Source: a virus | Taxonomy: Duplodnaviria; Heunggongvirae; Uroviricota; Caudoviricetes | Strand: one strand, 5' to 3' | DNA: 22,540 nucleotides | Virus record (IMG/VR): IMGVR_UViG_2526164690_000046 | Made by a program: the position numbers and the translations under genes | Part shown: one piece after another, positions 12,990-14,325 of the stretch | Position numbering within the stretch: the first letter of the stretch is position 1 | Layout: every line of letters starts with the position of its first letter | Notes under the pieces: generated by a model | The model's database searches: none | The model's input: only the letters and a program-made list of their open reading frames with translations | Told to the model about the DNA's origin: nothing

Positions 12990-13859
12990 ATGACCACTAT
13001 TACCAAAGAACGTATTGAATTGTTCATTAAAAATCCGCTTGAAAACGGGCTTACCCGTGGTGAACAAATGGAACTGGCACGGATTGCGCTGGCATCGCTG
13101 GAAGCAGAGCCGGTGGCAAAGATTATAGCTCATTACCCATTAGGGGTTGACGTAGGCAAACAAAAATTTGTACAGGCCATTAGAGAGCTTCCTGACTTTG
13201 GCGGATATCTATTTGCCGCCCCTCCAGCGCCGATAGTGCCGGAAGAAATGTATTGGCAGGATGCGCCAGTTGAAGGCAGCAGCAAAGCGGCTGCATACGC
13301 TACAGGCTGGAACGATTGCCGCGAAGCCATGTTTCAGTCCGGAAACTTTCGGGAAAATAAAGATTCGTCAACCAATAATTTTCGGAAAATCCCGGAAGCG
13401 TCAACCAGCTCTCCGGTAACTCCGGCTCTTCTGCCTGGTGGTTTCACCATTGAGGAGGCGAAGGAATTACATGAAGACCTGGCACGCAGCCACATAAGCA
13501 AGGCCTTAAGTGGCGAAAAGATGAAAAAGAAAGATCGCGATGCTGATTTGCGCTGGATTCATGGCGTTATAGTTCAGGCAGCGTGGTTTGTAAAAGCATC
13601 ACTGGAGCAGAATGCACTATCGGGCAACTATCCGGTAACTCCGGATAGTTGGATAAGCTGTAGTGAGCGAATGCCGGATACCAAAACAGCCGTTCTTGTT
13701 GCCAGGGATTTTGGCAGGAAAGGTGACTGGCGAATGAAATGGGCGACTTACATCCCGGGGCATCCTGACGCTAATGATGGGTGGATAATACCTGGTGCGT
13801 CGTGGATACCATCACACTGGATGCCTCTACCAGAACCGCCGCAGGAGGTGCGCCAATGA
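12990..13859 (+). CDS. Prophage protein with C-terminal DUF551-like domain
   Basis: 289-aa ORF; C-terminal W/P-rich motif (..WISCSERMPD..VLVA..GWIIPGASWIPSHWMPLPEPP) resembles DUF551 as I recall it. Confidence 0.55.
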   Translation: MTTITKERIELFIKNPLENGLTRGEQMELARIALASLEAEPVAKIIAHYPLGVDVGKQKFVQAIRELPDFGGYLFAAPPAPIVPEEMYWQDAPVEGSSKAAAYATGWNDCREAMFQSGNFRENKDSSTNNFRKIPEASTSSPVTPALLPGGFTIEEAKELHEDLARSHISKALSGEKMKKKDRDADLRWIHGVIVQAAWFVKASLEQNALSGNYPVTPDSWISCSERMPDTKTAVLVARDFGRKGDWRMKWATYIPGHPDANDGWIIPGASWIPSHWMPLPEPPQEVRQ

Positions 13860-13933
13860 ACTGGCCTGAAGCATTTGCAATTACAGGCGTTGCTATGGCT
13901 ATCGCTTTTTTAGTATATGTTATTTGTCGGTGA
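13856..13933 (+). CDS. Hydrophobic micro-ORF (25 aa)
   Basis: MNWPEAFAITGVAMAIAFLVYVICR; AGGAGG SD 8 nt upstream; ATG overlaps the upstream stop (ATGA); not in the track (<60 aa). Confidence 0.4.
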   Translation: MNWPEAFAITGVAMAIAFLVYVICR

Positions 13934-13974
13934 GGGTAAAAACGTTCGCCGGGATTAACACCAAAGGAGGGAAT

Positions 13975-14079
13975 ATGTCGGATGATATATCACTGGCAAT
14001 GGAAGGTGCGCTGGCTGTTGTTGCTGTTGTGGGCGTTTACTGCCTGGTTGTGTTTTTGATGGATCGACTAGGGAACTGA
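13975..14079 (+). CDS. Hydrophobic micro-ORF (34 aa)
   Basis: MSDDISLAMEGALAVVAVVGVYCLVVFLMDRLGN; AAGGAGGG SD; followed immediately by a 22-bp perfect palindrome. Confidence 0.45.
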   Translation: MSDDISLAMEGALAVVAVVGVYCLVVFLMDRLGN

Positions 14080-14087
14080 ATTCATTA

Positions 14088-14109
14088 CGATATGGGAATT
14101 CCCATATCG
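14088..14109. repeat. 22-bp perfect palindrome CGATATGGGAATTCCCATATCG
   Basis: Self-complementary by direct reading; centred on GAATTC; no U-tract follows. Confidence 0.8.
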
Positions 14110-14325
14110 GGTAAAAACGGTTTGCGGGAAAAGGAGAGTTAAGTAGAATTGCTGCGGGTGCTTGAGGCTATCTGTCTCAGGCATGAACACCAAAAGGCAG
14201 ATAGAGAAAAGCCCCAGTTAACATTACGCGTCCTGCAAGACGCTTAACATTAATCTGAGGCCCAATCTATGTCTCACAAATGTAGGTTAGCCTCTTACGT
14301 GCCGAAAGGCAAGGAGAAGCAGGCT

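Follow-up and report, generated by a model that had tools for sequence, protein, structure and literature searches.

The 22,540-nt stretch of phage DNA analysed here (Caudoviricetes; IMG/VR record IMGVR_UViG_2526164690_000046; hereafter the window) is a lambdoid Escherichia coli prophage in which two short hydrophobic open reading frames, ORF1 and ORF2, lie just upstream of a hok gene. The original prediction had read the interval 13856-14325 as two type I toxin-like micro-ORFs, each followed by a common motif and the second also by a palindrome. We conclude that ORF1 and ORF2 are probably genuine, conserved phage genes for predicted membrane peptides, that the repeated motif is a recombination seam and that toxins are unlikely. 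ORF2 was already known, being annotated and covered by ribosome profiling, while ORF1 is newly defined here as belonging to a common phage micro-gene family that had no name. Over the flagged interval, O26:H11 strain 11368 and many O26, O103 and O111 genomes match at 100% identity, and in its RefSeq context it lies between Rac-type replication genes and a DUF968-RusA-Q block.

Two conserved micro-genes

ORF1 (13856-13933, + strand; ATG at 13856, TGA stop at 13931-13933) encodes a 25-aa peptide, MNWPEAFAITGVAMAIAFLVYVICR, and its Shine-Dalgarno (SD) sequence AGGAGG (13843-13848) stands 7 nt ahead of the ATG. ORF2 (13975-14079, + strand) encodes a predicted single-pass membrane peptide of 34 aa behind the SD AAGGAGG (13964-13970). 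The grand average of hydropathy (GRAVY) of the two peptides (25/27 aa and 34 aa) is 1.2-1.4. No other ATG ORF on either strand of the 22.5-kb window combines a length of 20-45 aa, GGAGG or AGGAG 4-16 nt upstream and a GRAVY of at least 1.3, and such ORFs number 0.01 on average in first-order Markov random sequences. Two hydrophobic micro-ORFs with strong SDs are present where they had been placed, and beyond chance.

The upstream neighbour of ORF1 is a 289-aa DUF551 (EaA-like) gene (12990-13859, + strand; PF04448, E 6.7e-19), whose TGA stop overlaps the ORF1 start codon (caATGA) and whose last codons contain the ORF1 SD. Since the ORF1 ATG overlaps the upstream stop, ORF1 is translationally coupled to the upstream gene and is not made from its own repressed mRNA.

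Homologues of ORF1 were found by tblastn in 99 GenBank phage records at 52-70% aa identity, and degenerate DNA patterns collected 125 occurrences of the family in 63 distinct contexts in IMG/VR. Members are 22-32 aa long, most relatives being 27 aa, and have the layout M-x-WPEAFA-x-x-G followed by about 13 hydrophobic residues and usually ICRWG at the C-terminus. A GGAGG SD is kept in most members, and the overlap of the start codon with an upstream stop (ATGA, sometimes TAATG) in nearly all contexts. The neighbours vary on both sides: upstream stands DUF551 in many loci, an Ea22-like coiled coil in others as in 933W, and further genes elsewhere; downstream lie the hok promoter, ORF2, other genes or terminators. 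Over codons 12-27, the part left free by the search pattern, the ratio of non-synonymous to synonymous polymorphism (pN/pS) was 0.39 in frame versus 0.99 and 1.52 off frame. Furthermore, synonymous codons within the WPEAFA motif vary among distant members, and the deletion that marks one clade is an in-frame one of 6 nt. In the window copy a TGG has become TGA, with the loss of the last two codons; all other features of the WPEAFA family are present. Against PHROGs, ORF1 gave a weak match to phrog_38566 only (E 0.005), the 27-aa forms in databases come from a handful of contigs only, and a literature search found no paper containing the WPEAFA motif.

Several sequences show how far ORF1-like peptides may extend. 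A pattern scan of genome contigs for ATG-x-WPEAFA returned 24 matches, most of them chance matches inside long genes of high-GC genomes; those that look real are on an Escherichia contig, on a contaminant contig and perhaps in a 27-aa ORF of Sphingobium. The latter, in Sphingobium jiangsuense (L204), is an unannotated ORF1-like peptide, MGWPEAFAAVGICACVAATLIVFARSL, and L199 is also listed as a divergent non-Escherichia source. Klebsiella phage ST11-VIM1phi8.3 (L194, 601-672) has a divergent, unannotated ORF1-like peptide, MDWPTAFCIVGCAFAIAWLFRS, with a WPTAF variant of the motif. The family may extend past the phages of enterobacteria. A 431-bp contig labelled 'Xanthomonas pisi' (NZ_JPLE01000323; L203) carries an ORF1 identical to that of 933W and is probably contamination or has a misassigned host. 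In phage vB_EcoS-689R5 (L193, 399-509) the coding sequence (CDS) annotated at the ORF1 position is in another frame (MTGLRHLQ...) than the ORF1-like peptide present there, pointing to a frameshift or sequencing error. As for the upstream gene, the 289-aa DUF551 ORF is intact (12990-13859 of the window; 5211-6080 of L001), and the same sequence in NC_013361 is split by PGAP into two partial pseudogene fragments and a 62-aa DUF551 CDS.

ORF2 corresponds to the RefSeq hypothetical protein WP_001278454.1, and the exact peptide is recorded from about 1000 contigs, always as 'hypothetical'. Its homologue in the Sakai prophage Sp6, ECs_5710, lies between a DUF551-type gene and mok and has 33 of the 34 residues the same. 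The family is narrow, with 7 near-identical clusters in 1.84 billion representatives (HMMER). A tblastn search of phages gave no match, probably owing to the low-complexity filter, but blastn did find diverged copies in Evi and Tritos. The Evi type is a short form of 28 aa, mostly uncalled, that begins at a conserved GTG and has in common with the window type the motif ...YCL.V.LMDRL(G/S)(N/D); the conserved part of ORF2 is the helix plus LMDRL(G/S)(N/D). Within the window-type clade, synonymous to non-synonymous changes stood at 13:10 in frame (P=0.0015) versus 3:18 and 5:17 off frame, and within the Evi-type clade at 11:4 (P=2e-4) versus 2:12 and 1:13. No indel was seen in ORF2 among 30 unique sequences, and the flanks carry 1-nt indels; the variants ATG to GTG and TGA to TAA preserve start and stop.

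The ORF2 locus was reported by Hucker et al. (2017) as the novel, translated gene XECs145 of O157:H7 Sakai, with a predicted inner-membrane location (PMC5597208). In LB medium, RIBOseq gave XECs145 79 reads per kilobase per million (RPKM) for RNA and 346 RPKM for ribosome footprints, a ribosomal coverage value (RCV) of 4.35 and a coverage of 0.99; the RCV was 1.14 in brain heart infusion (BHI) and 0.01 under cold/osmotic stress (PMC5597208). ECs_5710/XECs145 is the same gene as ORF2, at the same position between the DUF551 gene and mok/hok. Hucker et al. drew a 54-aa frame from an upstream ATG without SD (PMC5597208), whereas we assign the 34-aa start because its SD is conserved and ATG-to-GTG variants occur there. 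As for the checks that the original prediction had named, the reading frames of both ORFs prove to be conserved in related prophages, and ribosome profiling in Sakai gives a signal for the ORF2 region (PMC5597208).

Could the two frames be non-functional chance products, conserved only through recent kinship of the prophages? The window-type sequences are indeed 88-100% identical to one another, ORF1 has no synonymous excess within that clade and its window copy has a premature stop. On the other hand, ORF1 homologues keep their length, start overlap and helix in unrelated contexts at the identities given above and are under frame-specific purifying selection, while ORF2 has a frame-specific synonymous excess in two clades together with ribosome occupancy; the chance expectation for ORFs of this kind is 0.01, against the two observed. 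The ORF1 pN/pS and the within-clade counts of ORF2 largely refute this explanation, which we consider very improbable.

Several observations nevertheless weigh against our reading of the interval. For ORF1, the changes within the window-type clade stand at 3:11; the clade with the 6-nt deletion carries two motif changes, W to R and E to D, and POCJ13 has a TAG at codon 3. Because of these motif changes, the POCJ13 stop and the truncation of the window copy, ORF1 may be decaying in some prophages. For ORF2, pN/pS between clades was 0.47 in frame 0 and 0.52 in frame 1 and did not separate the frames, and selection was judged from the within-clade counts. The XECs145 interval was set with the wrong, longer start and overlaps the 3' end of ORF1, and Sakai carries several near-identical ORF2 copies, so that the reads are not assignable to one ORF or prophage. 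In addition, a promoter scan of the window found none for expression of ORF2 in lysogens. Within our sample ORF2 never occurs away from the hok promoter or its remnant, pointing to a possible functional tie, and the hairpin role considered below for the palindrome draws on three substitutions only.

The repeat, the hok cassette and a mosaic joint

Downstream of ORF2 lies a hok/mok/sok locus (14156-14481), in which the leader fold, mok overlapping hok, the Sok region and a terminator are all present. The hok mRNA leader with its tac/ucb folds and mok start occupies 14156-14331 on the + strand (Rfam RF01794, 120.1 bits, full-length model). Sok antisense RNA is placed at 14207-14277 on the - strand by homology to the annotated sokW of 933W; the alignment covers 14207-14271 and the end is approximate. 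The mok frame (14269-14481, + strand, 70 aa) contains hok (14326-14481, + strand, 51 aa), which is identical to RefSeq HokD WP_000813254.1 (PF01848, E 3e-23). The terminator scan places an intrinsic terminator of the hok mRNA at 14550-14577 on the + strand. The right-hand third of the flagged interval is a locus of the kind represented by hokW of 933W and hokD of Qin (PF01848, RF01794).

Since the Rfam model sets the mRNA 5' end at about 14156, TAGAAT (14144-14149) would be the -10 element, 6 nt before that end, and TTGCGG (14122-14127) the -35 element, separated by a 16-nt spacer in a predicted promoter at 14122-14149 on the + strand. The homologous TTGGCG-17-TAGAAT of phage Evi was detected by the promoter scan, for which the -35 of the window is too weak. 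Mapped transcription starts were sought by sequence string in the supplements of a paper on EDL933 start sites, and none was found.

The original prediction had described a repeated motif after each ORF. Both copies are present, but the first had been placed one base off: copy 1 occupies 13934-13954 and copy 2 14109-14129, both on the + strand. The copies are 21 nt long, are 81% identical ungapped and have the exact 11-mer GGGTAAAAACG in common by repeat search; a gapped local alignment of the two regions was matched by 3 of 2000 shuffles. Copy 1 begins with GGG TAA (13934-13939) and continues with AAACGTTCGCCGGGA, which resembles the left edge of the hok cassette. Its GGGTAA corresponds to the final codon plus stop codon of ORF1 in the 27-aa form, most relatives ending in ...TGG GGG TAA. 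In 933W, ORF1 ends ...TGG AGA TAA AAACGGTTTGCGGG and is followed by the hok promoter, and in 933W and many Shiga toxin (Stx) phages the ORF1 TAA runs straight into AAACGGTTTGCGGGAAAAGGAGAGTTAAGTAGAAT and the hok leader. The 933W junction from ORF1 stop to hok is 49/49 identical to 14112-14160 of the window, and by megablast the homology of Stx phages to the window begins at 14106-14112. Given this identity, copy 2 is the A-tract and putative -35 region at the left edge of the hok cassette. The repeat is thus a fusion of the ORF1 3' end and stop with the hok left edge that occurs in two copies; it does not bear out the view of the motif as a downstream signal common to both ORFs.

Two other explanations of the repeat were rejected. 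As a working promoter, copy 1 offers TTCGCC but has no acceptable -10 at 16-18 nt. A transposon-type insertion with target-site duplication does not fit: the 21-nt copies are only 81% identical and need indels, terminal inverted repeats are absent, and nothing but ORF2 and its hairpin lies between the copies.

We propose that three independently assorting units meet in this interval, which would be a mosaic joint within the prophage's string of early (nin/ea-type) genes. The first would be ORF1, a portable micro-gene with its own SD that serves as last cistron of the upstream operon by translational coupling; the second ORF2, a separately initiated 34-aa membrane peptide, followed by a stem-loop; and the third the hok/mok/sok cassette, whose left edge, GGGTAAAAACGGTTTGCGGG, would provide the A-tract and the -35 of the hok promoter. 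On this model the ORF1 stop was once fused straight to the hok left edge, as it still is in 933W, giving rise to the repeated motif, and a copy of the fusion sequence now stands on either side of the ORF2-palindrome unit. ORF2 may have been inserted into the ORF1-hok joint, or the 933W lineage may have lost it from there.

The units occur in several combinations. The 933W-type hok has ORF1 with neither ORF2 nor hairpin, and the Evi type has ORF2 and hok with no palindrome. PPompW phages have a paa gene followed by the final bases of ORF2 and then by the palindrome and hok; in PPompW_132418 (L008, 2380-2700) the junction with this paa/adfO adhesin-associated gene is 14 nt upstream of the palindrome, and no more than the last ~10 nt of ORF2 remain before hok. 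E. coli JNEC-KY203 keeps ORF1, ORF2 and the palindrome and has lost hok just past its -10. There (L004, 1752-1920), and in L099, a minus-strand pair of an IbrB-like and a phosphoadenosine phosphosulfate (PAPS)-reductase-like gene replaces hok, the JNEC-KY203 junction following directly on the degenerate hok -10, GAGAGTCAAGTAGAT|GTATCGG.

Stop-start overlaps of the ATGA kind are a feature of lambdoid nin/ea regions, and mosaic module joints have been described for HK97, HK022 and HK620. ORF1 has in common with the coupled small genes of these regions both the ATGA overlap and module reassortment at gene boundaries, but the named nin/ea genes are much longer, and ORF1 is rarely annotated.

Other observations concern the surroundings of hok. 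The 'Actinobacillus' phage vB_Apl-pPE4 (H1) shares 98.7% identity with the hok region of E. coli and is probably contamination or has a misassigned host. A sub-threshold Rfam match to isrK (14490-14571; 27 bits against a gathering score of 50) lies over the 3' end of the hok mRNA and its terminator. Past hok, at 14520-14927, the longest ORF is of 135 aa, of which only residues 70-135 match PHROG 1212; RefSeq has a 92-aa protein there, which by position corresponds to the genes that separate hok from ydfU in Qin and PPompW.

The palindrome and the link to hok

The exact 22-bp palindrome at 14088-14109, CGATATGGGAATTCCCATATCG, is confirmed and begins 8 nt past the ORF2 stop. The window contains no second copy even when 3 mismatches are allowed, and none of 100 shuffles matched it. 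Elsewhere it occurs only after ORF2 or its remnant, ahead of the hok left edge. Its RNA is predicted to form a stable hairpin on either strand; on the + strand a 9-bp stem carries an AAUU loop, with a folding energy of -19.7 kcal/mol (z -5.0) and no U tract. All three arm substitutions in relatives are C to T in the right arm, changes that leave G-U pairs in the RNA of the + strand only; one arm also tolerates a deletion of 1 nt. We suggest, with low confidence, that the palindrome may form a 3' hairpin of the ORF2 transcript that acts as a stabiliser or a partial barrier. An intrinsic terminator was considered and rejected, as the stem has no U tract and is followed by GGGUAAAAACGG, and the terminator scan did not report it.

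Stem-loops of the repetitive extragenic palindromic (REP) type without a U tract are known to stabilise the mRNA upstream of them. The palindrome likewise would be a stable 3' hairpin with no U run, but unlike REP elements it is single-copy and lacks the REP consensus.

The palindrome could instead be a DNA site for a dimeric protein that regulates the hok promoter. Its dyad symmetry is perfect over 22 bp and centred about 58 bp upstream of the putative hok start, and its 16-bp core, TATGGGAATTCCCATA, is conserved in relatives. We nevertheless regard such a site as unlikely: the sequence is single-copy in the window, most hok promoters lack it (933W type, Evi type), and G-U-compatible substitutions and a tolerated 1-nt arm deletion are more in keeping with an RNA stem than with a symmetric site for a protein. 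No candidate for the binding protein was found.

A further possibility is that ORF2 and the hairpin form a functional accessory of some hok cassettes, either as a Hok-modulating peptide or as a translated spacer and hairpin that shield the hok promoter and leader from early-operon read-through. The ORF2 stop lies just upstream of the hok -35 in both clades (7 nt in the Evi type, 42 nt in the window type), each of the 131 ORF2 occurrences with enough downstream contig is followed by a hok promoter or what remains of one, and the palindrome was found only in the ORF2-hok context. Most hok loci, however, do without ORF2, with hok-region matches in 4573 genomes as against 673 for the ORF1-ORF2 segment. 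The 933W-type hok dispenses with both ORF2 and hairpin and the Evi type with the hairpin, which also has no U tract and thus is no intrinsic terminator. The linkage of ORF2 to hok may equal simple common descent, and we hold such an accessory to be rather doubtful.

Membrane peptides rather than toxins

In size, hydrophobicity (GRAVY 1.3-1.4) and SD strength, ORF1 and ORF2 are like TisB, Ldr, ShoB and the Fst-type toxins. On this likeness the two peptides could be antisense-silenced, membrane-damaging type I toxins, forming extra toxin-antitoxin cassettes beside hok. Minus-strand sigma-70-like matches lie opposite the ORF2 start (13999-13972) and inside the ORF1 3' end (13940-13912). The location also invites the comparison, being beside an established type I system and at the place that relBE takes in Qin; the original prediction was correct that relBE neighbours hokD, upstream of which it stands in K-12 Qin, but hok cassettes terminate variable gene strings, which accounts for the positional analogy.

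The remaining evidence speaks against toxins. ORF1 and ORF2 have no toxin-family match in Pfam, NCBIfam, PHROGs or PADLOC, neither matched the Hok/Gef profile PF01848, and PADLOC found no defence system. The only antitoxin RNA returned by Rfam was sok, part of the hok locus. In nearly all contexts an ATGA overlap couples ORF1 to the gene before it. Neither the 933W-type ORF1 nor the Evi-type ORF2 retains the minus-strand hexamers, which coincide with coding or start-codon bases. The ORF2 SD is mostly unpaired and hence open in the predicted fold, and the ORF2 homologue has high ribosome coverage in growing LB cells (RCV 4.35), the opposite of a silenced toxin. As with Hok, the peptides are short, hydrophobic and encoded on the same strand; they differ from hok loci in that they lack similarity to Hok, an overlapping frame of the mok kind, a folded leader and any antisense RNA or promoter that is conserved. 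Judged from the DNA, none of the architectural marks of type I systems (a conserved antisense promoter, an own repressed mRNA) appears to be present for ORF1 or ORF2, and the peptides are unlikely to be toxins, although harmlessness is not thereby proven. The type I toxin-like reading is not supported, and we rate it as improbable.

The expectation that such peptides are easily missed by annotation held for ORF1, which is nearly always uncalled, but not for ORF2, which is annotated in RefSeq. Both peptides were sought in the supplements of Enterobacteriaceae microproteome studies and were not found there, and a search with the RefSeq accession found no relevant paper.

Small membrane proteins of about 25-50 aa, such as AcrZ, MgtS, KdpF and CydX, modulate larger membrane proteins. 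ORF1 and ORF2 resemble them in size, in the single hydrophobic helix and in expression in growing cells without evident harm. In contrast to these proteins, no partner is predicted for ORF1 or ORF2, and the likeness would be one of kind and not of sequence. Both peptides would insert into the membrane, and most likely they are non-toxic accessory single-pass membrane proteins. A bolder proposal is that the WPEAFA peptides are widespread, essentially unannotated phage membrane microproteins with host-directed activity (phage exclusion, modulation of host membrane proteins, conditional toxicity) and that certain hok cassettes have in ORF2 a genuine third component; we consider this tenable but doubtful.

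The results illustrate that a motif common to two ORFs can be a recombination seam and part of a promoter, and they advise caution against over-reading such repeats. Small phage membrane peptides are under-annotated, and a few of them control host transporters, cell division or superinfection. ORF1 offers a clean, testable case, with a sharp N-terminal motif, strict stop-start coupling and a presence in about 100 sequenced phages, in which it is almost never called. ORF2 is expressed in a lysogen of enterohaemorrhagic E. coli (EHEC) and always lies against the hok promoter, which makes the idea of accessory genes in hok cassettes directly testable.

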